Virus record (IMG/VR): IMGVR_UViG_3300044844_000506
Location: 32,001 to 96,000 of that record
Source: a virus
Direction: 5' to 3' (one strand)
DNA length: 64,000 nucleotides
Position numbers and translations under genes: made by a program. The notes beneath the pieces are model-generated. The model was not told where the DNA came from. It did no database searches and worked only from the letters and a program-made list of their open reading frames with translations. This document shows positions 7,528 through 28,800 of the stretch, one piece after another (position 1 is the stretch's first letter; every line of letters begins with the position of its first letter).

Positions 7528-7845
7528 ATTCTTAATCTTAGGACTTACGAAGCTGCGCCTAATCAAATGAGGAATATCGTAAGTTCTATATTGTCTGCTG
7601 TCGCCCCAATAAGTCACTAAGGAAGGCGACCTATTGATTTTAAATCTATTGCTAAGTTCTGGCAGATCAAATAGATTAACCTCGTAAATCTGATCGTTGG
7701 TAGGACTTGAATTTAACTGCTCAAGAAGAGCGGCGCAATTATTGTCCTGCCAAGGGCTGAAGAAATAGAAGGTCTTTGAATCCGAAGTTTCTTCTGCTTC
7801 CTTGAGAAGAGAATAAAATTCAGATACAGTTGTAATTTTCTTCAT
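7513..7845 (-). CDS. Thioredoxin-fold protein lacking CxxC
   Basis: FYFFSPW, YEVNL..PEL..RFKI..SPSLV pattern; WQDNNC instead of WCxxC. Confidence 0.6.
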   Translation of the reverse strand: MKKITTVSEFYSLLKEAEETSDSKTFYFFSPWQDNNCAALLEQLNSSPTNDQIYEVNLFDLPELSNRFKINRSPSLVTYWGDSRQYRTYDIPHLIRRSFVSPKIKNSTCK

Positions 7846-11931: not shown

Positions 11932-14004
11932 CTAGCTACCAAGTTTGGCACTATTTGAAGTTACGTTGATTTCGAATACAATTGCTTCGGCAGCTTTTGT
12001 AGGAATTAAGATTATCTTACACCAAACTTCGCTACGATCAATTCTAGCTGGAGTGTTGGTGGTTTCATCACAAACTACCTTGAAGTCTGTGATGCCTCTA
12101 CGACGGCGAATATCATCAAGAATTGTTTCAGCCGCAGTTTTAATATTCTGCCAAGTAATTACATCGTTTGGTTCGAATGTGAATCTCTGGGTAGAAGCTA
12201 GTAAGGTCTTTCTTAGTAGAATTAAGAGTCTACGGACGTTAACTCTATCAAGAGCACTTGGGTTTCTTTGAGCAGTTCTCTGACCAAAGATTGTGATGCC
12301 CTGTTGTGGGAATTCTACTATTGGGTTTATAGCGTTACCACCTGAGTATAGAGAATCACGATCACCTTGGTTTAGAACAATCTCAACATCATTTGGTTTA
12401 GTTAGTCTACCGCGAGTAAATCCAGCAGGAGCAAACCATGTTTCTGCTACGCTATCAGTATAGCACATTTGTCTTGCGGCATAGATTGCTGGATCCATCC
12501 ACTTATCTACACCATCGAATACCGAGAATACACGGACCCAAGGGAAGTAAATAGCAGCGTAAGATGAATTGATAGCAGCAGTTCTAGTCTCTGATTGACC
12601 ATTGTGCCAATCGAGTGCTTCTTGTACAGTATCAATTGAACCATATGGAGGTGATACAATTGCAATAAAGTTCTGACTCTGTTCAGCTAGAGTTACTAAA
12701 GCATTTTGTAAGTTCTGGTTGCTAAATCCAGGAACTAAAGCTATTGAGATATTGAGTGTATCATTATCTAAAGCGTAGATACCTTCCTTTGGACTAACTG
12801 TAGGATCACCAATTAATGCAGAAGCATTAGTGTCATTGTCCGTGGAAGTTCCATTAGTACCTGCTCCTAAGTTATAAGTACCATCAATTAATTTAAGGAA
12901 TCTTGGGTTAGCAGCACCAACAGCAGATGATCCTCTCTTGCCCTGAATATTAGTTAATCCAAGGTCTGATAATCTACCAATGAAGGATGTCAACTTAGTT
13001 GGAGTAAAGTCATTGAGTGATGATACAAGGTAAGCCTTGATTACATCTGACTTAGCATTATCAGTACCAACATTAATTAGATCTTCAATGAAAGCACCAG
13101 AAGCTAAGAAGTTAGGCTTAAAGTATTCTACGGCTGCACCATCCTCATTTACTTCTAATGAGAAACTAGCGAAGCCTAGGTTAGTAATTTCAACTGAGTT
13201 ACCACTTACAGAACCATCACCTGTTGTTCCACCATTATAACCAGCACCTGGGTATAAGGACTTGACTAAGTAAGAAACACCAGAAGTTGAGTCAGAATTA
13301 AGTGTTACACCAGAAGCTGTTACGGAAGATGCTACTGATCCTGTTGGAGAACCGTTCTCGTCCAAGGCAAAAAGTGCGCTTACTCCAGTTGTTCTAGTAG
13401 AGTTAGAATATGCGGTAACAGTTATTGTTGCACCAGAACCAGCATAGGAACCGAATACATAACCTGATGCTTGGCTGGCAGTATCAAATATAGATCCGAA
13501 GTGAGATTGATCTAAGCCGTTACCTATTGCTTTTACAAGAGCAGTACCCTGATTAGAAGTTGCAGCTACTGTTCCTGAAGGAATATTAACTTGTTTAGCT
13601 GATATTAACTTAGAAACCCCATTATTGTCAGTTACCTGTATATCTAGGTATAAGTTTTGAGTTACACCGAAGGAGTTACCAGATACTATTACAGCAGGAC
13701 AAGCACCCATTGGTACTGCTGCTGATGCTTCTAGTGCTGTGCTGGTAGTTCCTCTTACAAAGTAAACGGCATTAGTTGCTTCTAGAATCTCAACTGCACC
13801 TTCAAGACCCTGACCAGGAATTGCATTTGAAGGCTTACCGAAGATATTAATTAGGTTTTGAGGTGATGTAACTAAAGTAGCCTTGTTTACTGGTCCTTTA
13901 GAAGCATAACCTACAATACCGACGATACTAGAATCAATAGCAACTCCGTAGTCGCTAACATCTTTCTCGATAACATATACACCTGGGCTACTAAGTTTTA
14001 CCAT
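11932..14004 (-). CDS. gp18: Tail sheath protein (T4 gp18-like)
   Basis: SPGVYVIEKD, GPVN, WFAPAGFTRG, GQRT, DRVNVRRL, FEPND. Confidence 0.97.
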   Translation of the reverse strand: MVKLSSPGVYVIEKDVSDYGVAIDSSIVGIVGYASKGPVNKATLVTSPQNLINIFGKPSNAIPGQGLEGAVEILEATNAVYFVRGTTSTALEASAAVPMGACPAVIVSGNSFGVTQNLYLDIQVTDNNGVSKLISAKQVNIPSGTVAATSNQGTALVKAIGNGLDQSHFGSIFDTASQASGYVFGSYAGSGATITVTAYSNSTRTTGVSALFALDENGSPTGSVASSVTASGVTLNSDSTSGVSYLVKSLYPGAGYNGGTTGDGSVSGNSVEITNLGFASFSLEVNEDGAAVEYFKPNFLASGAFIEDLINVGTDNAKSDVIKAYLVSSLNDFTPTKLTSFIGRLSDLGLTNIQGKRGSSAVGAANPRFLKLIDGTYNLGAGTNGTSTDNDTNASALIGDPTVSPKEGIYALDNDTLNISIALVPGFSNQNLQNALVTLAEQSQNFIAIVSPPYGSIDTVQEALDWHNGQSETRTAAINSSYAAIYFPWVRVFSVFDGVDKWMDPAIYAARQMCYTDSVAETWFAPAGFTRGRLTKPNDVEIVLNQGDRDSLYSGGNAINPIVEFPQQGITIFGQRTAQRNPSALDRVNVRRLLILLRKTLLASTQRFTFEPNDVITWQNIKTAAETILDDIRRRRGITDFKVVCDETTNTPARIDRSEVWCKIILIPTKAAEAIVFEINVTSNSAKLGS

Positions 14005-14204: not shown

Positions 14205-14594
14205 TTACTTTACGCCTTTACGAGCTTTTTTTCCAGCTTTTCTACCTGCTCGAAGAGCAAATCTATGTTGATGCATATCTTTATTACGAGTTTTTCTAAG
14301 TAATTCTTGTTCAGAGGTATCTATATCTGGAGAAGCTCTTAATCTTGCAACAAACTCTTCTGGAGCACCAGGAAATTCAGGATACCTAGGCGATAATGGT
14401 CTTGTACCTGAACCAGTTGTTTTCTTACCTCTACTAGAACGATGTACTGATTGTCTACCTGGCTCACTTAGAGCTAATCTGTTTTGTCTAATTAGTTTTT
14501 TTGCTCTTGTACTTAGACCTTTATCTACTTTAGCCTCTAATAGATTACCTAAATCAAGCGATTCGTAGAGTAATATTTTACCTGCTGTTATCAT
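14205..14594 (-). CDS. Basic protein with LLE| leader (putative internal head protein)
   Basis: NLLE|AK then K/R-rich body. Confidence 0.65.
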   Translation of the reverse strand: MITAGKILLYESLDLGNLLEAKVDKGLSTRAKKLIRQNRLALSEPGRQSVHRSSRGKKTTGSGTRPLSPRYPEFPGAPEEFVARLRASPDIDTSEQELLRKTRNKDMHQHRFALRAGRKAGKKARKGVK

Positions 14595-14637
14595 AATTTA
14601 ATCTTCCTATATTATATACTTTATATATATTTGTAAA

Positions 14638-14949
14638 TTAACTATTTTTTAGCGATAACGAATTATTTATTGCCTTATTATACCAGTTAATTTTAAGCTG
14701 TTTGTATTTCTCGGTCTTCCTAAATTGATCCCTATCTGGTTTAGTAGGAATTAAATTTCTAATTTTATAAAGTTTATTTTGTAAGTTACGTCTTATTAAG
14801 ACTATTTCTGGATCAATAAAACCGTCTTGAGAATTAAGTGAATGCTCAACCGTCAAGTTTATTATTTTTCTATAAAGTCTTTTATATGCTAAGGTAGCAC
14901 TTGAAGGCTGGGTGTAAGGACTGCTAATAATATAATCTACATAATCCAT
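14638..14949 (-). CDS. Hypothetical protein
   Basis: TAATG-coupled to gp15-like gene. Confidence 0.6.
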   Translation of the reverse strand: MDYVDYIISSPYTQPSSATLAYKRLYRKIINLTVEHSLNSQDGFIDPEIVLIRRNLQNKLYKIRNLIPTKPDRDQFRKTEKYKQLKINWYNKAINNSLSLKNS

Positions 14950-15695
14950 TAGCTAGTACGAGGTTTTGTATAGATACCTCCTTCTAAGTATATACGTTCG
15001 ATCTTTCCCGTACTAGTCATTAAAAATTTTGGATATGGTATATGTGTTTCTACTTTTAACCCAAATAATTTATTTAAAAGTCTATCTTCTCCATCTCCAG
15101 CCTCTAAACTTGACATATTCTGTTCTGAAGCTAAGAATATCTTACCATATTTAGTAAATGGAGTATTAACGTCCATAGAAGGATGGAACATTCTTTGAAT
15201 TTGTTCAGTAATTTGATCCATATCTTCTTTAAATTTAGTCCACACAGAAATATCGTATTCGATTGATACGGCTTTAGGAACTAAACTAACTACTCTAATA
15301 GCTCTTTGTTTGTCATTATCCCAGTATTTCTCACTGGTTATTAATGGTGTATATCTTCTTTGTTCTGCTTCCTCAGTTGTCTGCGTTTGATCAACAGCTA
15401 TTATTGGTAATACCACCAGAGTATCTTTATTTAATTTAGCGATAGTTCTTTCTGGTGATCCTGGAACACACTTAACATTTTTAATACTTTTATCTGGAAG
15501 CTGAATAACAATATTATTAAATAGCGATAATATGTTCCTAAGTTGCTCTTGATAAAACGAAGTAATTAAAGATTCTTTTCTAACGCTTTCAAGAATTAAT
15601 TGACGAACATAGTATTCTGGAGAATAATCGCTTCCAATGTCAAATGATGAAGTATTATATTCAGACAGACTTAATGTGTTAGATGATGTAGTCAT
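14949..15695 (-). CDS. gp15: Tail terminator / sheath stabiliser (T4 gp15-like)
   Basis: LPIIA, PKAVSIEYDISVWTK..DMDQITEQI..F.P; synteny with neck genes. Confidence 0.8.
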   Translation of the reverse strand: MTTSSNTLSLSEYNTSSFDIGSDYSPEYYVRQLILESVRKESLITSFYQEQLRNILSLFNNIVIQLPDKSIKNVKCVPGSPERTIAKLNKDTLVVLPIIAVDQTQTTEEAEQRRYTPLITSEKYWDNDKQRAIRVVSLVPKAVSIEYDISVWTKFKEDMDQITEQIQRMFHPSMDVNTPFTKYGKIFLASEQNMSSLEAGDGEDRLLNKLFGLKVETHIPYPKFLMTSTGKIERIYLEGGIYTKPRTS

Positions 15696-16210
15696 TGTCC
15701 TATATCTATGTTGCCTACGGAATCAGGAGTTATCAAGTTTGGTTTATCTACTATTTCTTCGTGACCTCTTAAGAACTTAGCAGTGCAAACATAATGATAA
15801 ATTCCATAGTTCTCGAATCCATCTTCTTGAACTTCATAAATCTCAAATTTTACTTTTTGAAACTTAGGCTCAATTACATCTCCAGGAATTGGAGGTCTAT
15901 TTAAGGTCTTAATGATATATGCTTTATTAAAAGTAAATACCTGTTCAGATTCTAATTCCAAACCAAACTTACTAAGTTTTTCTTCAATTGCTTTAGGGTC
16001 ATAGTGACCATGAACTAATATAGGAACTTTAGAGATACTTTTTATTCTCTCTTCTAAGTAGACATCACTATAAGTTTTATCCTGATAGTATTTGTAGTAT
16101 AACATTTCAGATCCAGATAATTTGATTAACTCATCGTCTACAGAGTTAAACATTTCTATATCAGGATTTTTTAAATCAAATAGATTTAACTTATAAGATC
16201 TCTCGGTCAT
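15692..16210 (-). CDS. gp14: Neck / head-closure protein (T4 gp14-like)
   Basis: ELIKLSG..YY, VYLE, KFGL, PIPGDVI, FEI. Confidence 0.8.
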   Translation of the reverse strand: MTERSYKLNLFDLKNPDIEMFNSVDDELIKLSGSEMLYYKYYQDKTYSDVYLEERIKSISKVPILVHGHYDPKAIEEKLSKFGLELESEQVFTFNKAYIIKTLNRPPIPGDVIEPKFQKVKFEIYEVQEDGFENYGIYHYVCTAKFLRGHEEIVDKPNLITPDSVGNIDIGQ

Positions 16211-16213
16211 TTA

Positions 16214-17083
16214 TTAACCCCAAGAAATATACGGAGGCTCTTCAATCTCATCTACCAGTTCTCTCTCCAGCTTTTCCATTTCTGCTTGAGCTTGTTGAAC
16301 TAATTCACCACCGTTCAATTGTGCTCCACCAGCGGGAGAAGGTACTGTTTTATACTTACCTCTGATCTGTCCTAAAGTTTCTCTAGATACTGCCAAGGCA
16401 TATCTATCAATCCAATTAAGATAAGCAGGGTGAATAGTCTCTGTATTTAATCCTCTGAATATTACAATAACTTCTTCTCCACCATACTGAGGAGAAGGAT
16501 ATAACTGTAGATATTTTCCATCTATAACATCCCAAGAGCCATCGTTACCTAATATTCTTCTAGTCATCTCTAAGTGGGATTGAAGCAAGTAAAAGTCTCC
16601 CATGCTAAAGTCTGAGAATAAAAAGTTTTCTTGGAAGTATTTAATGAAGAAATCGAACTCTAGTGTACCAGCTTGAGATTGAACACTAAGAAAGTTCTTT
16701 TTATAACCAACATATTCTAGGTTATCTAGTATGTACTTAGGTAGTTCGTATAGATTTACCCCATAGACAGATTTAAATGCCATCATCTGGGTATTCCATC
16801 TAGGAGCATGATAGCTTAATTTAGTAATAGCAGAATGGATAGCTTGTTTAATATTAAAATCAGCTAACTCAACTTTAATTACTGGATGACCTAATCTGCC
16901 TAACACATAGTTCTTAATTCCATTTTCAAAATCTGTAAACTCTGTTGATTCAGCAGCATCTACTTTACCTAACTTATCTCTATCAATTTGAGTGTTAGGT
17001 ATAGTATCTGTAACTAGATTTCCAGGAGATTTGCCGAAGCTATTTCCATATCCAGTTAATTCAGGTCTAATTGCTTCTGTCAT
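16214..17083 (-). CDS. gp13: Neck protein (T4 gp13-like)
   Basis: YVLGRLGHPVIKVEL, WIDRYALA, RGKY..P.GGAQLNG. Confidence 0.9.
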   Translation of the reverse strand: MTEAIRPELTGYGNSFGKSPGNLVTDTIPNTQIDRDKLGKVDAAESTEFTDFENGIKNYVLGRLGHPVIKVELADFNIKQAIHSAITKLSYHAPRWNTQMMAFKSVYGVNLYELPKYILDNLEYVGYKKNFLSVQSQAGTLEFDFFIKYFQENFLFSDFSMGDFYLLQSHLEMTRRILGNDGSWDVIDGKYLQLYPSPQYGGEEVIVIFRGLNTETIHPAYLNWIDRYALAVSRETLGQIRGKYKTVPSPAGGAQLNGGELVQQAQAEMEKLERELVDEIEEPPYISWG

Positions 17084-17086
17084 ACT

Positions 17087-17212
17087 TTACCCTTTACTAG
17101 CTAAATAAGCTCTCAATGCCTTCTTAAATTTTTTACCAGCAACTATATTCCTAGGTCTTTCCTCAAGAAGAAGTCGTTCGATTAATAATTTTAATCTAAC
17201 TTTATAATTCAT
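17087..17212 (-). CDS. 41-aa basic peptide with LLLE| leader (not in ORF track)
   Basis: MNYKVRLKLLIERLLLE|ERPRNIVAGKKFKKALRAYLASKG; ATGA-coupled to upstream ORF. Confidence 0.65.
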   Translation of the reverse strand: MNYKVRLKLLIERLLLEERPRNIVAGKKFKKALRAYLASKG

Positions 17213-17370
17213 TTCTTTTTAGTCTTTTTAATTTCTGCTTTAACTTCTTCTACTACAGGTTCTGGCTGTACTTTTGGCTCTTCTTTAGCAGCTATTTGAG
17301 CAGCCTTTTGAGCAGCTTTAATTCTGTTTCTTTCTTGTAGTCGTAGGTGCATCATGTTTCTCGGGTTCAT
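17209..17370 (-). CDS. 53-aa A/K/E-rich peptide (not in ORF track)
   Basis: GGAGG SD; MNPRNMMHLRLQERNRIKAAQKAAQIAAKEEPKVQPEPVVEEVKAEIKKTKKK. Confidence 0.65.
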   Translation of the reverse strand: MNPRNMMHLRLQERNRIKAAQKAAQIAAKEEPKVQPEPVVEEVKAEIKKTKKK

Positions 17371-17509
17371 TGTTGTCCTCCATTAAAATTAAATTAGGAA
17401 AATTTAATAATTCATTTGACTCAAGTACTTGATTAGGGAAAACCTCAATTACTTGATTATTAACTGCGATTAAAAAAGGAAATCGGCATTTTGATTTGTA
17501 CAAAAACAT
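17318..17509 (-). CDS. Small hypothetical protein
   Basis: 63 aa, immediately downstream of a TATAAATA box. Confidence 0.6.
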   Translation of the reverse strand: MFLYKSKCRFPFLIAVNNQVIEVFPNQVLESNELLNFPNLILMEDNNEPEKHDAPTTTRKKQN

Positions 17510-17523
17510 CTATTTATATATAG
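17510..17523 (-). promoter_or_regulatory. Putative late promoter CTATATATAAATAG
   Basis: Contains the T4 late consensus TATAAATA. Confidence 0.55.
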
Positions 17524-17533
17524 CCTATAAAAT

Positions 17534-17571
17534 AAGGATGGGCAGCTTTTTTTATTTAGCTGCCCATCCTT
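17534..17571 (-). terminator. Intrinsic terminator after major capsid gene
   Basis: 14-bp perfect stem AAGGATGGGCAGCT/AGCTGCCCATCCTT followed by a U-rich tract. Confidence 0.85.
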
Positions 17572-17592
17572 TTAAGTTACCCTACTTAGTTA

Positions 17593-19128
17593 TTAGACTA
17601 AGTTACCAATTGTCTTTCTGAAAGGCTGGTAGAGGTAGTTGCTGCTGGGACCGATGATTCTAAGAATTCTATAGAACTTAGCTTCGGGAGCGATTGCTAA
17701 CATACCGTAACGAGTCATGATACCCTTACGAGGTTGGAATGTAGCAGGATCAACTACTGTGGGGAGGTTCTCAATTGGGATGTAAGGAGCGTAAACGAAT
17801 CCTGTATCCATTGGACCAGAACCCTTATAACCCATGAGGATTTCGTCTTCGGGCCAGAGTGGGTCGATGTAAAGATCGAACTTACCACCGAGCTTGCCCT
17901 TGAACTGAATCTGAGTACCCATGTTTGATGGACCTTCAACCTTGGAACCACCATTACCACCCATACCACCACCGAGTTGAGCGGCAGTTTCGAGCATTGC
18001 ACCAATGAGTGGTGAGGTAACAATCCAAGTACCAGGACCACGATGAGTGGTCTTGAAGATGTCCTGTGACATGAGATTTAATGTTGCCCACATATTCGAC
18101 CAAACATGACCGATGTGTTGTGGGCTAAAAGGTATTGCTGAAGATGTGAAGTCAATTACCCATACGTTCGTACCTGCACCTGAGGGGTTAGTTACACCAG
18201 TGATACCACCAGTGGTATTGTTGTAATCCCACATGAACTTAGCAGGATTGAAGGTATCTGCACCACCAGTGTTGCCGATTGACTGGCTATTAGCTAAGTC
18301 TAGTGCATTTCTGTACCAACCACCTAAGCCGTTAGCAATGTTGCTATCGTAAGCAATACCACGGAGGTTTTCGAGAAGCTCACGGTCGATTTCGAGACGG
18401 AGTTCGTTACCCATGAGTTCAGTGAGTTCCTGTTCAAGATCAAGGTTGTGATAAGCCTTGAGATCCTGTGAAGCCTCAATTGTCCAGAGGGTACGCATCT
18501 TACGGGTACGAGCAACAACTGGCTGCTGTTCGATTGTAAGGTTTACTTCTGGAATAGCTGAACCTGAGAGGAATTCACCTGCTGAAATGCTGAAACCATG
18601 AGTTCTATCTGTTAGAGGCCAAGCAGCAATCTTACCACCGAATGTGGTCGAGGCTGAACCTCTTGTAGCACCATAAATAGTGCTCAATTGAACGTCATCA
18701 TCACCATCGGCACTATTAGCACCTACTGGGTTAGTTGTTAAACCACCGTAGGTTAACTGGTACTTGCTATAGACACCTTCTCTTGCTACACCGTATTGAC
18801 GGCCAGAGCCAAGGTAGAATACCTGACCAACTGGACCCTGCATGGGCTGCTGAGAAACTATTGCGTTTGCAATTAGCTGAGGGTAAACTCTACGGATTAG
18901 AGGGAATGCAAACTTCTGGAAGGTTCCAATTGAACCTGTTGAAGTTGCACCTTCAAAACCTGCTACGTTAGTTTCATCAATTCTCTTTGACTTCTCAAGA
19001 AGAATTGCCTTTGCTTGGTTCTCATAAAGAGTAGCTACGACTTTGCGAGTGTAAGAGTCATCAATGCCTTTTAATGCGGCACCCCACTTACCTACAAGGT
19101 CTTCGCCATTTTCAATTAATTCGCTCAT
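17593..19128 (-). CDS. gp23: Major capsid protein (T4 gp23-like)
   Basis: LIRRVYP, QPMQGPVG, ARTRK, QDLKAYH, EIDRE, GFVYAPYIP, FQPRKGIMTRYG. Confidence 0.98.
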   Translation of the reverse strand: MSELIENGEDLVGKWGAALKGIDDSYTRKVVATLYENQAKAILLEKSKRIDETNVAGFEGATSTGSIGTFQKFAFPLIRRVYPQLIANAIVSQQPMQGPVGQVFYLGSGRQYGVAREGVYSKYQLTYGGLTTNPVGANSADGDDDVQLSTIYGATRGSASTTFGGKIAAWPLTDRTHGFSISAGEFLSGSAIPEVNLTIEQQPVVARTRKMRTLWTIEASQDLKAYHNLDLEQELTELMGNELRLEIDRELLENLRGIAYDSNIANGLGGWYRNALDLANSQSIGNTGGADTFNPAKFMWDYNNTTGGITGVTNPSGAGTNVWVIDFTSSAIPFSPQHIGHVWSNMWATLNLMSQDIFKTTHRGPGTWIVTSPLIGAMLETAAQLGGGMGGNGGSKVEGPSNMGTQIQFKGKLGGKFDLYIDPLWPEDEILMGYKGSGPMDTGFVYAPYIPIENLPTVVDPATFQPRKGIMTRYGMLAIAPEAKFYRILRIIGPSSNYLYQPFRKTIGNLV

Positions 19129-19139
19129 AATTTTTTATC

Positions 19140-19766
19140 CTATTTATTAGGCATCAATGCCATTACATTCTCGTTGAGGAATGGATTAGAACGATCTAAT
19201 CCGAATTGTTCATCCTTAATTTGTTCCTCTGCAAGAATTAAGGCTTTTTCACTGGACTTAAACGGTCTTCGTGTATCGAGAAGTTCCTCAACTTGCTCAG
19301 TTAAAGGAACTAATTGTTCTTCTAAAGTTGAGGCAGTCTTCTTGTACTTACCTGCTAACTTTCTGTACTTTTCTAATTCTGGAACTAAATTATTTAATTG
19401 TTCAATTAAAATCTGATTTTCTTCAATGAGAGAATCTATCTGCTCATTTACTTCAGCTTCAGCTTCTAACTCTTGGTCATCTAATTCAATAGAATCTTCT
19501 AATCCTAATAAAGACTTAAGTTTACGGAATTGAGCAGCATCTCTGTGGAGATCACTTTCGTCCTCTAATTCCTTCTCAGCTTGTTCTTTTAATAGGTCTA
19601 TGTTGCCTCTAATAAAAGCTACTGTTTTAGCTTCTAATAGTTTTACTCTTTGTGTTACTTCCTCATTAATAAAACCTGAAATGAGGGTAGCTATTTCGTC
19701 TAAGCTATCCTCACTTAAATTATCGGGAAGAAGATCACTTAATTTATCTAATTTATTTGCGTTCAT
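19140..19766 (-). CDS. gp22: Prohead core scaffold (T4 gp22-like)
   Basis: Acidic coiled coil immediately upstream of the capsid gene. Confidence 0.75.
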   Translation of the reverse strand: MNANKLDKLSDLLPDNLSEDSLDEIATLISGFINEEVTQRVKLLEAKTVAFIRGNIDLLKEQAEKELEDESDLHRDAAQFRKLKSLLGLEDSIELDDQELEAEAEVNEQIDSLIEENQILIEQLNNLVPELEKYRKLAGKYKKTASTLEEQLVPLTEQVEELLDTRRPFKSSEKALILAEEQIKDEQFGLDRSNPFLNENVMALMPNK

Positions 19767-19773
19767 AGTTTAC

Positions 19774-19786
19774 CTATCTGTATTTA
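19774..19786 (-). promoter_or_regulatory. Putative late promoter TAAATA-N4-TAG
   Basis: Same motif upstream of several structural genes. Confidence 0.45.
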
Positions 19787-19826
19787 TTCTAGCTAACTTT
19801 ATTTAAAGATTTTTTTTATTTTTTGT

Positions 19827-20849
19827 TTAAGAGTCTTCAAATTCACTAAGATGACCTCTTAACTGTTGTAAACTTCGATGTAACGATTGCCTAACTGTAT
19901 CAGGATTACTATTTAAAACTTTTGCTATTTGTATTGTATCATACCCTTTTAAATAATATAATTTAACTATGTTTTGTTGTGTTGGATTTAGTCTTGAGAT
20001 AGCTTTACCCAATTTAGCTCTAACTTCTGATCCAGCTATTCCAGAAGATGGATCTTCATATTCTTTAGGTCCAGAAATAGTAGATCCAAATTCTTTTTCA
20101 GTACCTGCTATAGGAGCATTTAATGAGCCTCCCTCTTTAGATCTAGCTCTTTTTTCTTGTGTATGATATCGTAAAGCATCTCCTACTCTAGCGTTTATAA
20201 TTTTAGATAAAAATCTAGGAAAAGATTCAACATTAAAATCTAGTTTTTCTAAATTTTGAAACCCTTCTTCAAATGCTTGTTGAACTATATCTTCAGCAGA
20301 TACCTTTGATTGAAGACTACCTAACCTACTTCTAGCAAATGCAATTAACTTTTTACTATGTTTATTAAATAGTTTATTAGTTGAATCTTCATCGCCTAAG
20401 CTGTGAGCCTGAAGTAATTCATGATCTTCTTTGTCATGAGGAACATTTCTTTGTGCCGCTTTAGCAGCTTCTTTATCAGCTATTGCTTTTTTAACTACCT
20501 TTTCTGGAATGTCTTCAGATGGTGTTTCTGATTTAGGTTTTACTTTTTTAGGTGGAAGTTCTAATGGTACTTTCCAGTAGTCATCACTTTTATCTTTTTG
20601 ATCTTCTGATTTCGGCTCTTTTTGTTCTGGCTTCTTAATTACTGGGGTAGCTGTAGGTTTTTCAACTTTAGGAGTAACTTTAGGTTCTTTAGTCTTTGGA
20701 GTAGGTTTTTTAGAAACAATCTTAGGTTTTTCTTTTTTAGGTAGAGGTTCTATTGGTTCTTCAATATCTTCTCCCTCATCTTCTTCAAGAAGAAACTCTT
20801 GAATTAAATGAATTGAATTTTCGTCTAAGATATTTTTAAAACTAATCAT
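19827..20849 (-). CDS. ECF sigma-70 factor with N-terminal leader and P/K/E-rich linker
   Basis: Sigma2 (AEDIVQ..F, F..FL..I..RVGDALR) and sigma4 HTH (RL..QQNIV.L.Y..G...QIA..L....TVR..LHR) in the C-terminal ~200 aa. Confidence 0.9.
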   Translation of the reverse strand: MISFKNILDENSIHLIQEFLLEEDEGEDIEEPIEPLPKKEKPKIVSKKPTPKTKEPKVTPKVEKPTATPVIKKPEQKEPKSEDQKDKSDDYWKVPLELPPKKVKPKSETPSEDIPEKVVKKAIADKEAAKAAQRNVPHDKEDHELLQAHSLGDEDSTNKLFNKHSKKLIAFARSRLGSLQSKVSAEDIVQQAFEEGFQNLEKLDFNVESFPRFLSKIINARVGDALRYHTQEKRARSKEGGSLNAPIAGTEKEFGSTISGPKEYEDPSSGIAGSEVRAKLGKAISRLNPTQQNIVKLYYLKGYDTIQIAKVLNSNPDTVRQSLHRSLQQLRGHLSEFEDS

Positions 20850-20850
20850 A

Positions 20851-22017
20851 CTAACAATTCCACTTTCTTAAAGCCTTGTTAATTCTGCTGTTAGGATCAT
20901 TGGCTGTTTTTGATGAGGTACGACTTCTTTTCATTCCACCCATACGAGCGCAGAATGATTTACGTCTCTTAGCAGATTTGCTGCCCTTTTTTAATTTAGA
21001 TGGATCTGTAGTTACAGCAGTCTTTAATTTAGAACCAGGATTAGCTCTGCGGTATGCTTCAACTCCTTTTTGAGTTAAACCACCAGCTCTGCTTTTATGT
21101 ACACCCATTTTCATTTTGGGCATTACACCTTTACCTTCTACTAAAATGTTTTTTATGAGTTTGGTATAGGCTTCTACTAAATCTGCTTTAGATTTAACAT
21201 CCATTACACATCTTTCAAATTTTTTAGGATCTCTTCCTTTACCAAGAGAAGCATTACACACTGCCCAAGGGTTTACTTTAGATGTGCGTTTAGCTTCATT
21301 AACAGGTTTACTAGGAACACAATTAGGTACTTTTCTCTTACCCTTCATCTTCATACCTACTTGCTGATATCCTTTCCAGCAAGGATCTTTCTTTTCAAAG
21401 ATTTTAGAGATTCTATCATCCTTAACTGTATTTAATCTGGATTCAAGTAAGTTTAGTAATACCTTATTATTTAATGCAGCCTTTTTTGTTTTTTCTAGTA
21501 ACACAGACTCATTTACTTGAGATGGATGAGCACCTCTTGTTGAAGGATCCGCAACTAAATCAAATGTTACCGCACGGAAATCTTCATTAACTTCAAATTT
21601 GCCTGGAGAATCTTGACATGGCTTTAATGATCCAAGACCTCTACTGGAAACACCAATTCGTACTCCGTCCTTAATTAACTGTTGAGCTACTTTACCAGCA
21701 GGAGTATTTAATAGTTGAGATTCCCCTATTAAAACATCTCCTTGCCAGTATAGCTTAGTTACCATGTGTGATGCGTTAGTTAATTTAACTGTTGGACTAT
21801 CTGGGTGATCTAATTCACCTAAAAGTCTATTTTCAGTTACTAATGGCATTAATCTGGTAACTTCTCTTTCTAAAATTGGTTTTGGGTAGCGTCTGTTATT
21901 CTTATTGAATTCTCCAGCACGACCAAAGATACCTCTAATCTTAATAGTACCAGACTCTGTAGACTCTGATATTACTTGAACTGGATCTAATCTAAAGTAA
22001 TCAATAAGTAATTCCAT
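20851..22017 (-). CDS. gp21: Prohead protease (T4 gp21-like) with C-terminal basic peptide modules
   Basis: NKNNRRY, GELDHP, SHMV, TPAG, GVSSRGLGS, FDLVADPS. Confidence 0.95.
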   Translation of the reverse strand: MELLIDYFRLDPVQVISESTESGTIKIRGIFGRAGEFNKNNRRYPKPILEREVTRLMPLVTENRLLGELDHPDSPTVKLTNASHMVTKLYWQGDVLIGESQLLNTPAGKVAQQLIKDGVRIGVSSRGLGSLKPCQDSPGKFEVNEDFRAVTFDLVADPSTRGAHPSQVNESVLLEKTKKAALNNKVLLNLLESRLNTVKDDRISKIFEKKDPCWKGYQQVGMKMKGKRKVPNCVPSKPVNEAKRTSKVNPWAVCNASLGKGRDPKKFERCVMDVKSKADLVEAYTKLIKNILVEGKGVMPKMKMGVHKSRAGGLTQKGVEAYRRANPGSKLKTAVTTDPSKLKKGSKSAKRRKSFCARMGGMKRSRTSSKTANDPNSRINKALRKWNC

Positions 22018-22045
22018 TTTTTATCCTTTATATTTCTTATTAAAA

Positions 22046-22288
22046 TTATGCACCATAAAATGGTCTGCGTCTAATTGTAGCTCCAGTCGGACCTTTTTTT
22101 GGATTTCCTTCTATAAATTTCTGAAATGCAGAAGGCTTTGGAGATTGTGGTTTTTTAGGTTTATCTCCTTTTTTATGATGTGGTAATGATGCAAATTCTC
22201 CTTTACCAGATCTAGGATCGTCTGAAGGATAATTAGCTTCAGCTAAAAGTAAATCATAAATATAGTCAAAATAATTTATTTTATTCAT
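22046..22288 (-). CDS. Basic peptide with LLLAE| leader
   Basis: MNKINYFDYIYDLLLAE|AN..., K/P-rich. Confidence 0.65.
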   Translation of the reverse strand: MNKINYFDYIYDLLLAEANYPSDDPRSGKGEFASLPHHKKGDKPKKPQSPKPSAFQKFIEGNPKKGPTGATIRRRPFYGA

Positions 22289-22317
22289 AGGTTAACTTTC
22301 CCAAAGTAATTCTATAA

Positions 22318-23349
22318 TTATTCCTCCCAAGATTCTTCTTTATCTTTCTTGGCTCTCTCTCTTTCCATTTCTGATTGATAAGCCGCAGTAAGTTCAGCAG
22401 ATTTCCCACCTTTAGCCTTAGCAGCAGCCGCTATTTCTTTAGATCGTAAATCTTGTAAAGCACGCTTTTTACGATCTCTTTCTGCTTGTTTTATAGCAGC
22501 GACGCCAGTTTTCTTGGGTTTTACTTTAGAAGAAACTACTTTACCATGTTTGTCTATTTCAATTGGAGTCATTCCACCTGATGCACTTAGTTTATGACCT
22601 AACTGCTTTTCAGCAGACGATAGTCTCTTTCTTCTTGATTCCAATGCCTTCTTTCGTCTACTTAATCTTGTTTCAGCCTCTTTTTCCATTTTAGGAAACT
22701 CTGAGGGACTGGCTTCTCTATAAGCCTGTCTAGCTTTTTTAAGTTCTTGTGCTTTTGCAGCTAAATCACCTTTAGCTCTAGCTGTTCCAGCACCTTTTTC
22801 TCCAGGTTTTAATAACTTATCTTCTGTAGCTTCCTTATGTGCTTTTAATGCATCTCTTAATCTTTGTCTTGTTTTTTCAGATGCAGAAGAATATGCGTCT
22901 ATTCTAGCTTTTCTACCTGCTGCTACTGCCTCTCGTCTCTTACGTCTTAATGATCCCTTCTTAGCTTTAGGATCAGAAGCTAATTTTGTTTTAGCTTCTT
23001 CTGCCTTAGATTTTTTAGACTGGTATTCCTCTCGTTTTTTTCTAATTGCTCTTAATTTAGCTTGCTCTCTTGATAGTTTTCTTTCGTGACCAGATACTCT
23101 TCTAGTAGATAGTCTAAGACCTTTTTCTACTTCTGACTCATAGGTATCCTCTGTTTGTCTTGGTTTTTTATATGATTGTTCACTTTCTTTTTGAGATAGA
23201 GGTTTATCTTTTTTTAAAGCCTCTGCTGCTTTTATATTATGTTTACGTCTTTCTGATCTTACTCCAAACTGTTTTTCTTTAATTGCATCTATCTCTTTTT
23301 GACTAAGTTCTAAAAGTAAAGAAGCAATGCTATTATATGTATTGTTCAT
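22318..23349 (-). CDS. Highly basic helical protein with LLLE| leader (putative DNA-binding internal protein)
   Basis: MNNTYNSIASLLLE|; extremely K/R/A-rich. Confidence 0.7.
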   Translation of the reverse strand: MNNTYNSIASLLLELSQKEIDAIKEKQFGVRSERRKHNIKAAEALKKDKPLSQKESEQSYKKPRQTEDTYESEVEKGLRLSTRRVSGHERKLSREQAKLRAIRKKREEYQSKKSKAEEAKTKLASDPKAKKGSLRRKRREAVAAGRKARIDAYSSASEKTRQRLRDALKAHKEATEDKLLKPGEKGAGTARAKGDLAAKAQELKKARQAYREASPSEFPKMEKEAETRLSRRKKALESRRKRLSSAEKQLGHKLSASGGMTPIEIDKHGKVVSSKVKPKKTGVAAIKQAERDRKKRALQDLRSKEIAAAAKAKGGKSAELTAAYQSEMERERAKKDKEESWEE

Positions 23350-23351
23350 GT

Positions 23352-23741
23352 TTAATAACCTTTTCTAGTTATTTTTTTCTTTTTAGCTTTAACTTTAGGA
23401 GTTCCTCCCATATTAGTTCCGATACTCCCGCAAGTGGTCATTTCATCAATAAGGTTTTTAGCTTCTTGAATTAAATGCATTAACTTTTTAACGTATACTT
23501 CAGGATTAACTGTCTGATTGGATTCTCTTACGACAGGAGAAACTTTTTTAGTTGTCTTCTCACCAAATGAATGTTCTAATATAGTATTAGTATACGAATG
23601 AGGAACTGTTACCTTAGATATATCAGGAGCATTAGGTCTTATAATACCTTGGGGAGTCGAAACAAGTTTTCCTTGTTTCGACTCACTTTTAAGTATTGAT
23701 TCTGCTATATTAGCTATATCAAAATCTTTTTGCTTAGGCAT
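23352..23741 (-). CDS. Putative head-core protein
   Basis: ILE, VRE, IDE sites; basic C-terminus; head cluster. Confidence 0.65.
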   Translation of the reverse strand: MPKQKDFDIANIAESILKSESKQGKLVSTPQGIIRPNAPDISKVTVPHSYTNTILEHSFGEKTTKKVSPVVRESNQTVNPEVYVKKLMHLIQEAKNLIDEMTTCGSIGTNMGGTPKVKAKKKKITRKGY

Positions 23742-23746
23742 AAAAA

Positions 23747-24625
23747 TTATCTTCGTGTAACTGGAGAAGCTCCAGTCATTAGATTTTTAAGAGTTCCGTG
23801 TAATCCACCTAAGTTAACCTTTGCTAATGCTTTAGATCTTTGTGGATTACTATGTTGACCAAATTCACTTACACCTTTTTTAAATTTAGGAGAAATGGCT
23901 CCACCTATTTTAGCTGCAACACCAGCGAGTTTACTTCCGCCATGACGAGCAGCGCCGACTCTTCTACCAGCTTTTTCCATAGCACTAACTTCAACTAGTA
24001 AATGAGCAATTTGTACATATGTCTCGTTCATTGGTTCGCCTTCTATTTCATTGTGTGTAAATCTCATGCCAACTCTCTTATATCTTTCTTCGGTTGCTTT
24101 ACGTTTTTCTGGATCAATAAAAGTTTGTGCTTTTTGTCCTGGAGCCGTCTGCTTTTTAAAATAACCTAAAGCTGTATTTTGCTTCTTACCCTTACTTTTT
24201 GTGATTTGAGCCTGTGTTGGTTGTGAACTCAATGTACCTGCTCTACCATGCATTAATCTATTTGTTTGGCGAGCTTTTAATAGGTCAGCATATGCTTTAT
24301 TTCTGCCTTTCTCATCTTTACCTCTTACAGCTTTACCATAAGCCTTAACAGCTTCACCGTGCTTCATTTTTGCACCTTTTTGTAACTGCGCTTGTTTCCA
24401 TTGGCCTCCCTTAGATCTTAAGGCAGAACCAATCTTCTTCATTCCCCCACCAACCATACCCTTTAATGCGGTTAAAAACTCTTGTAATAATTCCTCGTCT
24501 TCTAAGAGAATAGGAATGAGTTCTTGCTGGTGATCAAGAGGAACACCTTCTTCTGTGAGAAGAGCACTTAAATTTCTTTTCTCTTCTTCTAATAGAAGAG
24601 ATTCTTTAATTATGGAATAATACAT
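23747..24625 (-). CDS. Basic protein with two leader motifs (putative internal head polyprotein)
   Basis: MYYSIIKESLLLE| and internal MNETYVQIAHLLVE|. Confidence 0.7.
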   Translation of the reverse strand: MYYSIIKESLLLEEEKRNLSALLTEEGVPLDHQQELIPILLEDEELLQEFLTALKGMVGGGMKKIGSALRSKGGQWKQAQLQKGAKMKHGEAVKAYGKAVRGKDEKGRNKAYADLLKARQTNRLMHGRAGTLSSQPTQAQITKSKGKKQNTALGYFKKQTAPGQKAQTFIDPEKRKATEERYKRVGMRFTHNEIEGEPMNETYVQIAHLLVEVSAMEKAGRRVGAARHGGSKLAGVAAKIGGAISPKFKKGVSEFGQHSNPQRSKALAKVNLGGLHGTLKNLMTGASPVTRR

Positions 24626-24631
24626 GGGGTA

Positions 24632-24985
24632 TTACTCCTCGTCTTCGTCTTCAGATTCTTCGTCGTACTCTTCTTCGTCGTACTCTTCACCATCGTCTTC
24701 TGATTCTTCTTCTGATTCTTCATCTGAATCGTCTTCTTCAGACTCTTCTAATGATTCATTTAGAGTATCTTCAACAGCAGTGAATACTTCTAACATAGCT
24801 GCGCTGTGCTCTAATAAAGCCTCTTCGCTGATTGGTTCAGCGAGATTTGATTGGCATAGAGGACAAACATGAGCTTCTGTTACGGGAGCCTGATCTGAGC
24901 ATTCAGTTAATGCGTCTTTTTCAGTGGGTAGCCAGCTTGCACCCTCAGTAATAGCCTTTACATAATTTTTAGAAACGTGTGACAT
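24632..24985 (-). CDS. Acidic prohead core-like protein with CxxC
   Basis: AITE site, HVCPLC, poly-D/E tail; AGGAG SD. Confidence 0.7.
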   Translation of the reverse strand: MSHVSKNYVKAITEGASWLPTEKDALTECSDQAPVTEAHVCPLCQSNLAEPISEEALLEHSAAMLEVFTAVEDTLNESLEESEEDDSDEESEEESEDDGEEYDEEEYDEESEDEDEE

Positions 24986-25066: not shown

Positions 25067-25864
25067 TTAAGTACAGTCAAATGATCGTATAGTACCACCT
25101 TGGTTGCCAAAATAAATAGGTCTTGATGCTGTACTTAAATAAAATGTTACTATTGTAGGACGTTCAAAGTATTCAGAAACGTAATTATTAACTGTAATAA
25201 CATGAACACTACTTAAATAAAAGTTAGTTACATCCCCAGTTAAAGTTATAACTCCAGTATTTAAATCTATTTTATATGGATAGGGGAAAGGGGGATCAAC
25301 ACTCATTATTTTAGGTATAGTTTCATCTTTAATGTCTTTTCCAGTATCTTCCTCTTTAATTGGAGTATAGTATTCTGGAACTACTGCTAATCTTCCAACA
25401 GAAGATAGCCATGATTCGACATAAATTTTATTACAAGTTTGATATGTAATTAAATCAAGACTGTTAAGTTTATAATCTAAAACAGGAAGTCCAACGGTAT
25501 AACCGATAGTGTTTTCAGGATCTTGTATATCTGTATATGCGTTAGCAGATTGACTCTGAGATACGGATACACCTTCATCTATCAATACATCTGTAGATCC
25601 ATTATCACCTACATCTCCACATGAGATTTTATCTCCGTCTCTATGAATCCCTTTTCCATTAGCAAAAACTGTAGTAGATCCACCTAACACTGGACCCATT
25701 TGATGACAAGCTGGACCACAACAATGAGTTTGACCATAATTATCATCTATTCTAACAACAGGCTTATCATTAACAAAAACGTCTGGGGAACCATTTACTG
25801 AGAATGTTGGAGAGTAGCAGTGTCCCTGAGACACATCAGTTAAAGCTCTTATTGGTCTTGGCAT
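25067..25864 (-). CDS. PAAR spike-tip protein (T4 gp5.4-like) with C-terminal extension
   Basis: GH, GSPDVFVNDKPVVR, GSTTVFANGKGIHRDGD..CGD..GSTDV. Confidence 0.88.
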   Translation of the reverse strand: MPRPIRALTDVSQGHCYSPTFSVNGSPDVFVNDKPVVRIDDNYGQTHCCGPACHQMGPVLGGSTTVFANGKGIHRDGDKISCGDVGDNGSTDVLIDEGVSVSQSQSANAYTDIQDPENTIGYTVGLPVLDYKLNSLDLITYQTCNKIYVESWLSSVGRLAVVPEYYTPIKEEDTGKDIKDETIPKIMSVDPPFPYPYKIDLNTGVITLTGDVTNFYLSSVHVITVNNYVSEYFERPTIVTFYLSTASRPIYFGNQGGTIRSFDCT

Positions 25865-28800
25865 TATAGTAAGGATTCTTCTTCAGGTGGTACAGGAGGT
25901 CTTACAGGAACTTCTATAGCGTATGATAACTGGATATCTTGAAGCCCCTTACTAGATACAATTCTAGTCGGGTTTCTTCTGGATGAAGCGTCTTTATTTT
26001 TAGGGGATTTAACATGATAAATTTTGGTGTTAGTTTTTTCACCATTTTTAAGTTTATTAATAACTTTAACATCCGCTCTTTTATTTAAAGTATACATATG
26101 CTTTCTGTCTAATCTAGCTAATAAGTCATACCATGTAATCCCATTATCAATTTCATAATTCTCTTTAATTTCTTCAACTTTAATAACTGCGGCTCGGACT
26201 GGATCCAACTCTCTTTCTGGTATTTCTTCTGGATTCTTATATGTTTTAGTATAGTTTGTCGTATCTCCGTACCTGCAAATATAAGATTGAGTGCTATAAT
26301 CTCCTGACTTACTTTCACCTTCAGAATGTATGTAAGAGTTAAGAACCTCAAATGGGTGCTGTAACAGTCCGATATCGTTTAGCTTTTTATCTGGAGACAT
26401 CTCCCATCTTAGTTCTCTAACATTCCAATCTTTTAACAATGAGTTAGCATTATAGAAGTTGTAGAAAGTTCTATTCGTTGGAGTTATTACTATAAATCTA
26501 GGAATTTTTCTTACTAAGAAAGGATCAGTCTCATCATCTTTAAATCCAAACCCATCATAAGTTACATCTCTAAATGTAAATTTAAATGTCGTTCCACTAA
26601 CAGAAGAATTACTGTAATCAAAATAGTCCCATATAGGATCATCGTGGTTAATAGTTAACACTAACCAAGGGTATGCTCTATAAATGATATCATCATTTAA
26701 ATCTTGAATATCTTGCTGGCTACTAGTTACGATATTATAATACGCATCTGTTTCTTTTATAAATGGGGAAAGCTCTGAATTATCATCAATTATTGTAGAC
26801 GTATTTAATTGTAATATATAGTGGCTTAGTGGTGGATTAACACTGCTAGTTATTTCTACGTTTACATCTGGGCATGAAGCGGTTAAAAGAACCTGTTTAT
26901 CAAACCCCAAATGATACATAATTAAATGTTCATCATCATTTCTTAATACGTTAGCATTAGCTATATTTGATTCAGTTGGTATATTTATTTCTTCAGACGA
27001 GGTAATGTAACACTGCAAAGTATCGTTGATAGTTAATTCTAATAGTACCTTGTTTCCAGATGAATCTAAAGCCTCAATAGAATCAGTGTTTTGAACATAA
27101 AAGTTTTCTTCCCCACTAGATGTAATAAAAACACATCTCTTGTTTATATCGGTAGGTAATGTATACCATAGATCTAATAAGTTTTTTGAATCATCTGTGT
27201 ATTTATTTGGATCTATAGAAAGCATTTTTTTGGGTATTAAAGACTCTCCATAGTTTCTATTCCTACTAACTGTTGTATCTATATCTGCTGATCGTGTAGA
27301 GATAGTTCTATTTGTAGCTAATGAAGATTTACTAATTCCATATCTAGATTTTTCTACTGAAGTAATATTAGGTCTAACAGTATTTACTAAAGGGATTTCT
27401 TTAGTTAATTCTTGAATATAGTCTGAATCTAGTTTATCTACCGAATCAGTTTCTATTGATCTACGAATAATATTAGAGATTTTAGTAGCATCTACAGGGA
27501 CGCCATTAGTATATTTTAAATTATAGAGTCTTCTAAATGAACTATTTAAGCTATTTTTTATGTGGTCATCAGATATGTTAGTAGCATCTATTACTGCTTC
27601 TTCAAATGTTCCTGATTCTTTATTGATAATACGATTTATACTATAGTGGCGGATCTTACCAAATATGTTTGAGTTTTTTTCACCGTAAGTGGGTAAAAAC
27701 TGAGATGGACTTAAAGAATATTTAGTATATTTTAGATCGTACTCACTTTCTGCGGTGTAACTTGATCTTGTAATTTGATCATAGTATTTTTTACCATCGC
27801 TAGTATTCAAGTTCCCAACAGGAGAATTTTCATCATAGTAAAGATTAGATATTATATTAGTGTCTATGTTTTCAGTATTAGAAATTGCTGTGAGGGTAAT
27901 GGTATAAACAGTATTAACTAATAAATTATTAAACACACAAGTATGAACATCATCAGGAACACTTAAATTAATTGTTTGAGAATTATTATTTTGATCTGTT
28001 AAAATAACTTGAGCAGTGGTATTTAATGGATTTTGTGTTGTTTGTTCTACAGTTTCAAAACCTACGTTTAATGATAGAGAGTTATTTGAAAAACTAAATA
28101 ATGCTTCTTCATTTAAAATTACAGGTATTTCTTCTTGTGGTTGTCCGTAATTAGGACATTGTACATCTACAGATAATTGATCAGATTGACCACCAAGTCC
28201 AAAAGACTGTATATTAACTCTATAATTTCTTAGAGGTATTAAACTAGGGTAATTTATACTTTGAGAAAAAGGAGAAACTGTTCCTATTAAATCAAAAGCA
28301 TCTATAGTTTGATTATTAAATAAATCAGTTATGATAACCGTAGAATCTGCTTGAATGTGCTGGTTAGTTGCTAAGTTAATTACTTCCCAATAAATGTTTA
28401 ATACAGGAGAATTATTTTGAATAATAATTTGTATGTCAGAATTAACAATCTCTAAATCATCTACTGGAGGTGTAGAATTAGTTGTGATTGTTCTTGTAAT
28501 TGTTGCAGGATTATACTGTACATATTGATTCCAATTTAAGTTTTTAGTAACAGTGATAGAGTAAGTATATTGTTCTCCAGGAGTTAAGCCATTAAAGTTT
28601 ATAACGTGAGTTTTAGATAAATTATTATTGGTAACTTGAGCTAATATAACAGATGGGTTAGATGTTAAAAATATAAAAGCTGTAAGTCGAACTGTAAAAT
28701 TTGATTGAGTAATACAAGTTAAACTATTTTCTGATACTTGTTCTTGTGTTACAACTACAGTCAAATCTTCTTCATACGGTGGTAAATCAGGAGGAATAGG

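Follow-up and report, generated by a model that had tools for sequence, protein, structure and literature searches.

Leu-rich leader peptides in the head-gene region of an uncultured T4-like freshwater phage resemble the T4 capsid-targeting propeptide

Introduction

The capsid-targeting sequence (CTS) of bacteriophage T4 was reportedly described by Mullaney and Black in 1996. Such propeptides are carried by IPI, IPII and IPIII, which are internal proteins, and by Alt, and are removed by the prohead protease gp21 (PMC9026906, PMC3012670, PMC5694885). The internal proteins have only this tag in common, and the N-terminal decapeptide of IPIII, MKTYQEFIAE, is enough to bring foreign proteins into the head (PMC9026906, PMC8442874, PMC3012670); within it, residues 4 and 7 matter for targeting, whereas processing involves residues 8 and 10 (PMC9026906). 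T4 cargo is diverse, and Alt is cut at both ITE-6 and LTE-619 (PMC9026906, PMC3012670, PMC5694885). The protease has an N-terminal site of its own, LIE-9, and reviews suggest that the targeting principle is general to T4-like phages (PMC9026906). Here we describe a family of Leu-rich leader peptides in the head-gene region (positions 14205-24985) of a 64,000-nucleotide stretch of DNA, hereafter the window, which comprises bases 32001-96000 of the 111.6-kb IMG/VR virus record IMGVR_UViG_3300044844_000506 (35% GC). The source is a T4-like, uncultured freshwater phage, and its leaders are likely to be propeptides of the T4 type. Positions refer to the window unless marked as genome positions.

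Results

Leu-Leu-x-Glu leaders cluster at the N-termini of the head region

A preliminary description of this region had listed ten leader motifs, and all of them were found at their reported positions. The N-terminal examples belong to the open reading frames (ORFs) that start at 23349, 24625, 22288, 17212, 14594, 20849 and 24985. The others are located at Met199 (nt 24031) of ORF 23747-24625, at residues 283-294 of the protease gp21, and in the capsid propeptide (ILLE45 and RIDE52). A leader of the form Y/F-x2-I/L followed by LL-x-E, 11-22 residues long, opens six genes of the region and recurs in two internal copies.

Enrichment at N-termini had been set beforehand as a check on this family and was evaluated over the 142 ORFs (35,411 amino acids) of this genome. 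LL-x-E ends within the first 30 residues of nine genes, against 2.1-2.2 expected from its internal frequency or from shuffled sequences (shuffle P 0.0005, Poisson 5e-4), and six of the nine belong to the 16-gene set at 14205-24985 (hypergeometric P 5e-5). The proteome contains the tetrapeptide LLLE three times, and all three copies fall at residues 10-17 of genes from this region. In an unbiased scan, every three- and four-residue pattern (1,439) was compared between the 16 N-termini of the region and the other 126. LLE (5/16 versus 0/126, P 1e-5) ranked first together with LL-x-E (6/16 versus 2/126, P 2e-5), and both survived Bonferroni correction. A de novo scan of whole-genome N-termini in a reduced alphabet did not single out the motif, and the signal is therefore specific to Leu-Leu-x-Glu. 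The three LL-x-E matches outside the region include those in an 82-aa ORF located some 7 kb upstream of where the window begins and in ORF 7513-7845; the latter was rejected as a leader because its orthologue does not have the motif, and it is probably a false positive.

The bodies that follow the leaders have a Lys plus Arg fraction of 0.17-0.33, compared to a genome mean of 0.124, and pairwise BLAST detected no similarity among them. The initial claim that the leaders precede unrelated, K/R-rich bodies thus holds for most members, but not for the NYVKAITE protein (24632-24985), which is acidic and conserved in the clade. The internal leader at Met199 is close to a nucleotide-level paralogue of the leader of ORF 22318-23349. 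The Leu codons of the other leaders differ, indicating that selection acts on the peptide. The leaders constitute a family of related tags with at least three or four subtypes, one of them the 20-residue leader of the ORF starting at 14594. Of the single interchangeable tag first proposed, an exchangeable N-terminal tag on unrelated cargo is what the comparative evidence and the T4 precedent support; its being one tag is not.

The leaders lie next to a T4-type protease and capsid protein

The product of 20851-22017 belongs to PF03420 (Pfam 1e-24) and to PHROG 207, head maturation protease (7e-50). Its catalytic His (E-L-D-H-P) and Ser (S-S-R-G-L-G-S) align to those of T4 gp21 (5JBL). The S77 domain covers residues 1 to about 205 and is followed by a C-W-x-G-Y module (206-238), an N-P-W-A-V-C module (239-282) and DUF6321 (307-388). 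These three fused modules are basic and contain two cysteines each, and a leader-like segment ending in ILVE294 precedes DUF6321. Proteases of the clade keep an N-terminal [LIV]-x-E near residue 18 and have K/R-rich tails of 100-370 residues with internal hh-x-E sites (h, hydrophobic).

In the major capsid protein, the candidate maturation cuts after ILLE45 and RIDE52 fall 1-8 residues ahead of the segment whose alignment partner is the N-terminus of mature T4 gp23*; capsid residue 53 aligns with residue 12 of the mature T4 protein. ILLE/RIDE is the presumed capsid maturation site and not a cargo tag, as it had been counted at first. All 55 unique related capsid proteins keep [LIVM]-x-E at the T4 gp23 maturation position (55/55), and for this reason the clade protease very probably cuts after hydrophobic-x-Glu like that of T4.

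The product of 19140-19766, between these two genes, is acidic (isoelectric point 4.4), coiled-coil-like and conserved in the clade, and it contains 12 [LI]-x-E sites versus 7.2 expected. We presume from these features that it is the gp22-like scaffold and that the leaders would dock on it.

Leaders are kept and bodies exchanged among relatives

Related loci were collected with the capsid protein, giving 429 IMG/VR stretches of which 80 loci (49-91% identity) were kept; gp21 was unsuitable as a query since it was swamped by its widespread DUF6321 tail. The structural genes are syntenic in all loci; the genes around the protease are not. Every locus has K/R-rich ORFs with a short N-terminal segment that ends in [LI]-x-E; the next residue is in most cases Ala, Ser, Gly or Lys.

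Several leaders were found in front of different bodies, in the same or in another slot. The leader of ORF 14205-14594 resembles that of L082:8333-9337 (z 11.7), which lies between gp21 and gp22 and has a 334-aa body; the two bodies are unrelated (z -0.1) and the slots differ. The ORFs directly upstream of gp21 in loci L096 and L100 have nearly the same leader (z 15) and unrelated bodies (z 0.7), and ORF 22046-22288 combines their leader type (z 5-6) with a further, different body. The ORFs syntenic to it in L084, L092, L096, L100 and L105 start with a similar leader, I-Y-D-L-L-T/V-E, and have unrelated bodies of 93-147 aa; over the comparisons at this slot, z was 5-15 for leaders and at most 0.7 for bodies. 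Cargo turnover among relatives, a check named in the preliminary description, was thus observed, the slots differing even between phages with 81-91% identical capsid proteins.

The three two-cysteine modules fused to gp21 are separate mini-genes in relatives, each with its own leader immediately ahead of the module, and internal leaders mark fusion joints. For DUF6321, a hydrophobic-x-Glu site lies no more than 35 residues upstream of the domain in 61 of the 69 unique ORFs, versus 50% in shuffles, and many of these ORFs start M-K-T-F-K-Q-F-L-x-E. Four of the five DUF6321-bearing records sampled carry an S77 protease. In hundreds of IMG/VR contigs, DUF6321 and the C-W-x-G-Y...P-N-C-V-P and N-P-W-A-V-C modules occur alone, in tandem or fused to proteases or other proteins. 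They usually stand just after a hydrophobic-x-Glu site and behave as mobile mini-domains.

The tagged proteins of the head region

The coordinates of all features are collected in Table 1. ORF 23747-24625 consists of a leader that ends in LLLE13, an acidic stretch with four further hh-x-E sites that reaches residue 49, a basic body A, a second leader from Met199 to LLVE212, and a basic body B; its body is homologous to L082:4845-5810 (z 9.8). In ORF 22318-23349 the body is 29% Lys plus Arg, is predicted to be helical or disordered and contains one further [LI]-x-E site. It matched no Pfam or PHROG family, and its low-confidence Atlas model had no informative neighbour. The predicted mature product of ORF 17087-17212 is a basic peptide of 24 residues; its slot is occupied in L081 by a syntenic 42-aa ORF with a leader ending in LITE, and in L082 by a leader-bearing ORF of 162 aa. 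ORF 14205-14594 is inserted among neck and tail-completion genes and is absent from that place in the closest relative, L081.

Two proteins of the region are of a different nature. Most related loci have an orthologue of 24632-24985, and the majority of these orthologues retain [LI]-[LI]-E ahead of a conserved S-A-W. The Asp plus Glu fraction is 0.38 for the whole protein and 0.42 past residue 14; there are seven [LI]-x-E sites versus 3.0 expected, and no Pfam or PHROG match was obtained. Orthologues of 23352-23741 were found in nearly all related loci (26-57% identity), and the protein has four [LI]-x-E sites versus 1.1 expected.

Table 1. Features of the head-gene region and of the remainder of the record discussed in the text
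Feature	Position	Strand	Basis or remark
Tail sheath	11932-14004		
Candidate cargo protein, 129 aa, isoelectric point 11	14205..14594	-	Distinct 20-residue leader ending NLLE20
gp15-like protein	14949-15695		
Head-tail adaptor	16214-17083		PHROG-based
Candidate mini cargo ORF, 41 aa	17087..17212	-	Leader ending LLLE17
Major capsid protein gp23	17593..19128	-	Pfam Gp23 5e-72; N-terminal propeptide
Presumed gp22-like scaffolding protein, 208 aa	19140..19766	-	Position between gp21 and gp23; composition
Extracytoplasmic function (ECF)-type sigma factor, 340 aa	19827..20849	-	22-residue leader ending FLLE22
Prohead protease gp21 with fused modules	20851..22017	-	Pfam Peptidase_S77 1e-24, DUF6321 4e-17; PHROG
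Candidate small cargo protein, 80 aa	22046..22288	-	Leader ending LLLAE17; immediately upstream of protease gene
Candidate cargo protein, 343 aa	22318..23349	-	Leader residues 1-14 (Y5, I8, LLLE14)
Conserved head-module protein, 129 aa	23352..23741	-	Orthologue N-termini of D-F-A-x-S-L-I-E type
Candidate two-module cargo protein, 292 aa	23747..24625	-	Two leaders, two basic bodies
Acidic protein, 117 aa	24632..24985	-	Hydrophobic-x-Glu site at residue 14; clade-conserved
GC-rich element, 33 nt, three copies	genome 5518-5543, 12685-12710, 111318-111343	- (coding strand)	
Basic protein, 423 aa	genome 109261-110532 (L161:762-2033)	+	Two leader-plus-body modules

A sigma factor with a leader

Of the functions first proposed for the cargo, namely DNA condensation, anti-defence and an injected sigma factor, only the last has a supporting fold. 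The product of 19827-20849, which starts 1 nt past the protease stop codon, matched Sigma70_r2 (1.4e-8), Sigma70_r4_2 (3.5e-10), Sigma70_ECF (3.8e-7) and Sigma70_r4 in Pfam and the PHROG sigma factor family (2.6e-19). Regions 2 and 4 are present; regions 1.1 and 3 are absent. An N-terminal extension of 130 residues, atypical for ECF (group 4) factors, comprises the leader, an acidic patch and then a linker, rich in Lys, Pro and Glu and about 100 aa long, that leads into regions 2 and 4. The leader belongs to the protein because the only Met is residue 1. Repeated homologue searches returned only the protein itself or the L081 contig, where L081:1280-2047 occupies the same slot and has a 23-residue leader ending in LLIE; the capsid proteins of these two phages are 91% identical. 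The sigma factor was sought in the records of five other relatives (one of them complete) and was absent. The slot contains a leader-bearing basic protein in L082 and is empty in more distant relatives, and with this patchy occupancy the sigma factor behaves like the other exchangeable cargo.

A GC-rich element is present three times in the record (within L162:5440-5640, L162:12610-12810 and L161:2740-2940). It reads T-T-C-C-TGTCAC-G-T-T, three variable bases, and G-C-G-C-G-G-A-A/G-T-A-CGAC-C-C; two copies lie in GC-rich pseudo-ORFs in a block of small genes upstream of the window. With its arrangement TGTCAC-N16-CGAC it looks similar to an ECF-type promoter. A search of five other related records, four without the sigma factor plus the short L081 fragment, gave only chance-level matches. 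This distribution fits an injected sigma factor that would drive early promoters but does not demonstrate it. We tentatively raise the possibility, itself doubtful, that the sigma factor is capsid cargo which would be made late from the head operon, loaded by its leader, trimmed by gp21 and injected, and would then redirect the RNA polymerase core to the three GC-rich elements.

A two-module protein outside the window

The 423-aa protein of the same record begins with a leader and contains another one at residues 204-215. A word-based homologue search returned only the protein itself; a full HMMER search found six relatives, and standalone proteins match each half, each of them initiated by a leader. 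The second half matched nothing in Pfam or PHROG, and its AlphaFold model was unusable (predicted local distance difference test score 49.5). Its ESM Atlas neighbours include Tox-ART-HYD1, DarT, PARP and Arr clusters, at lead level only (score 0.87, TM 0.40-0.48), and a two-sequence alignment has a conserved H-x-T-S and Y-F/W pattern. The second half is a candidate for a possible ADP-ribosyltransferase-like domain. An assignment of the first half to the GNAT family was rejected, having no Pfam or PHROG support.

Layout of the window and ends of the record

Nearly all genes of the window are encoded by the minus strand. Genes for a PAAR-like protein (PHROG 281; 25067-25864) and for a 1027-aa protein with fn3-like repeats (25864-28947) lie immediately upstream of the head cargo block, an order common to relatives; the head module is thus bordered by baseplate spike genes, which differs from T4. 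In the head module there is a single exact occurrence of the T4 late-promoter word TATAAATA (17511-17518, minus strand), directly upstream of a conserved small ORF (17318-17509); the word is not enriched across the window. Both ends of the record (genome 1-127 and 111477-111612) consist of tandem copies of the 12-mer ACTAATAATCGA, and its apparent terminal overlap and completeness therefore rest on a tandem repeat.

Discussion

We consider it likely that the leaders are capsid-targeting propeptides of a T4-type internal-protein system, and that the tagged proteins are virion cargo from which the head protease would remove the tag is probable. The argument combines several lines of evidence. 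The motif is enriched and positioned at the N-termini of the region; leaders are kept before unrelated bodies in the same or in different slots; and modules fused here are separate leader-initiated ORFs in relatives, as well as the other way round. Like the T4 internal proteins, the bodies are basic, and their genes are in the late structural operon. The neighbouring S77 protease has its His and Ser and, across the clade, an N-terminal [LIV]-x-E, and the same kind of site is invariant at the gp23 maturation position. To this are added the hydrophobic-x-Glu sites and T4-like starts of the DUF6321 ORFs, and the T4 precedent, in which a 10-residue tag suffices and cargo is diverse.

A mechanism can be proposed on this basis. 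The leader would be a short amphipathic N-terminal segment in two parts, with the Y-x2-I pair corresponding to residues 4 and 7 of T4 IPIII (targeting) and the LL-x-E end to residues 8 and 10 (processing). In T4, exchange of the tag's Glu for Asp abolishes processing and leaves targeting intact. The leader would dock the protein onto the gp22-like scaffold core during prohead assembly, after which the gp21-type serine protease would cut behind the leader Glu. Cleavage at internal leaders would free tandem modules as well as the protease's own fused modules. The basic bodies would be retained alongside the DNA inside the head and pass into the host together with it.

Several observations weigh against this reading. 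The presumed scaffold had no hidden Markov model match to scaffold families in Pfam or PHROG, and the best matches of the capsid protein in a phage collection were below 35% identity, without a close cultured phage. Since the leaders are of several subtypes and vary in length (11-22 residues), one receptor common to all is an assumption. Under a broad hh-x-E rule the N-terminal odds ratio is just 2.1. A 12-column matrix built from the leaders of this phage had no matches in relatives, and an 8-column matrix was just about 2.8-fold enriched at their N-termini, a weak recovery that we attribute to drift of the leader consensus between lineages. Since cargo must survive the protease, its bodies should be depleted of cleavage sites; we counted 9 internal [LI]-x-E sites versus 12.3 expected, which is not significant (P 0.19). 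Lastly, two members are better explained otherwise: 24632-24985 is probably a prohead-core protein with a gp67/68-like role and not basic cargo, and 23352-23741, given the D-F-A-x-S-L-I-E type N-terminus of its orthologues, is likely a processed core protein.

The last two points lead to the strongest alternative, that the tagged proteins in general are disposable accessory proteins of the prohead core or scaffold, like T4 gp67, gp68 and gp22. The leader would then be the first of several cuts, the proteins being fragmented and the pieces leaving the head. The genes indeed occupy the place of T4 gp67/gp68 upstream of gene 21 (PMC5694885), and the non-significant site depletion, together with the density of [LI]-x-E in 24632-24985, 23352-23741 and the N-terminal 49 residues of 23747-24625, is in line with such a fate. 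Most of the basic bodies, however, have at most one further site over 60-330 residues, and, like the T4 internal proteins, they are basic, in contrast to the acidic presumed scaffold of this phage. No scaffold role is apparent for a sigma factor or for a possible ADP-ribosyltransferase-like domain, and bodies replaced so quickly between phages whose capsid proteins are 81-91% identical do not behave as a structural core. For the set as a whole we judge this alternative unlikely.

Far less probable is a leader that serves as a recognition tag for another enzyme, as in the modification of ribosomally synthesized and post-translationally modified peptides (RiPPs), or as a nucleotide-level recombination linker that moves cassettes. 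The two closest leaders (22318-23349 and Met199 of 23747-24625) are similar in nucleotide sequence, as a linker would be, but the differing Leu codons of the remaining leaders point to conservation of the peptide. In addition, leaders always end in hydrophobic-x-Glu, they cluster around gp21 and gp22 in every relative, the internal copies are exactly at module joints, and no modifying enzyme is consistently adjacent in related loci. An origin of the motif by chance or composition, from N-terminal helices rich in Leu and Glu in a genome rich in AT, would agree with the abundance of [LI]-x-E (409 sites genome-wide, and 48 genes with one in the first 30 residues) and with the coarse reduced-alphabet scan, in which the motif did not rank first, but this explanation is rejected by the shuffle, Poisson, hypergeometric and unbiased k-mer tests, is largely refuted by the conservation of leaders before unrelated bodies in relatives, and is the least credible of all.

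If the leaders are T4-type propeptides, the capsid-loading tag would be an ancient, clade-wide plug-in system that reaches phages whose capsid proteins are below 35% identity to any cultured one. An annotation rule would follow: a protein with a leader ending in hydrophobic-x-Glu beside an S77 protease is a candidate injected protein. Under this rule DUF6321 and the small two-cysteine modules would receive a likely role, and the long basic tails of the clade proteases would be explained. Because injected proteins act before phage genes are expressed, anti-defence factors and host-takeover enzymes are naturally to be sought among the tagged proteins. A packaged sigma factor, should it be confirmed, would be a new host-takeover mechanism and the first virion-delivered sigma factor, and would provide a third route to host-independent early transcription beside the packaged single-subunit (N4) and multisubunit (phiKZ) RNA polymerases.

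The capsid-loading principle itself is already known, having been established for T4. What is new is its reach into a distant uncultured freshwater clade, the longer and different leader consensus, the number of tagged modules, the tandem and protease-fused arrangements, and a sigma factor among the candidates. The T4 CTS and the leaders described here are both short N-terminal propeptides, known or putative, of 10-20 residues that end in hydrophobic-x-Glu and have an aromatic/hydrophobic pair (i, i+3) upstream of the known or predicted cut site. They precede diverse, mostly basic, non-homologous bodies encoded by late head-module genes, in the context of a homologous S77 protease, a gp23 capsid protein and, presumably, a scaffold. 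The N-terminal [LIV]-x-E of the clade proteases resembles LIE-9 of T4 gp21 (PMC9026906), and this site and the tail sites together parallel the terminal processing considered for T4 gp21 and Alt (PMC9026906, PMC5694885). The DUF6321 starts M-K-T-F-K-Q-F-L-x-E have an architecture nearly identical to that of the T4 tag MKTYQEFIAE (PMC8442874). In contrast to the T4 CTS, the leader here is longer and Leu-rich (Y-x2-I-x2-3-LL-x-E versus Y-x2-F-I-x-E), has two to three extra residues between the hydrophobic pair and the hydrophobic-x-Glu end, and occurs in several subtypes. The system had been described as analogous to IPI-III but larger, and this is borne out by about ten or more tagged modules compared to three internal proteins and Alt. 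Tandem modules split by internal leaders, three modules fused to the protease and one tagged sigma factor further set it apart. Loading is experimentally established in T4 and is predicted here from gene sequences.

Two other systems are more distant. In phiKZ, 201phi2-1 and SPN3US many head-internal proteins are also cut after Glu by a gp21-related protease, paralogues have common N-terminal propeptides, some of them with multiple sites, and the protease processes its own C-terminus; their motif, however, is S/A/G-x-E and their propeptides are much longer (PMC5694885, PMC7411985, PMC10052503). The cargo of the phiKZ-type phages includes a multisubunit virion RNA polymerase, whereas the phage described here has a sigma factor, a 112-kb genome and T4-like head genes. 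The Dar system of phage P1 likewise brings anti-defence and accessory proteins into the head during assembly for delivery with the DNA, but it is non-homologous, and incorporation is hierarchical via DarA and Hdf without a common cleavable N-terminal tag (PMC9024508, PMC12810830).

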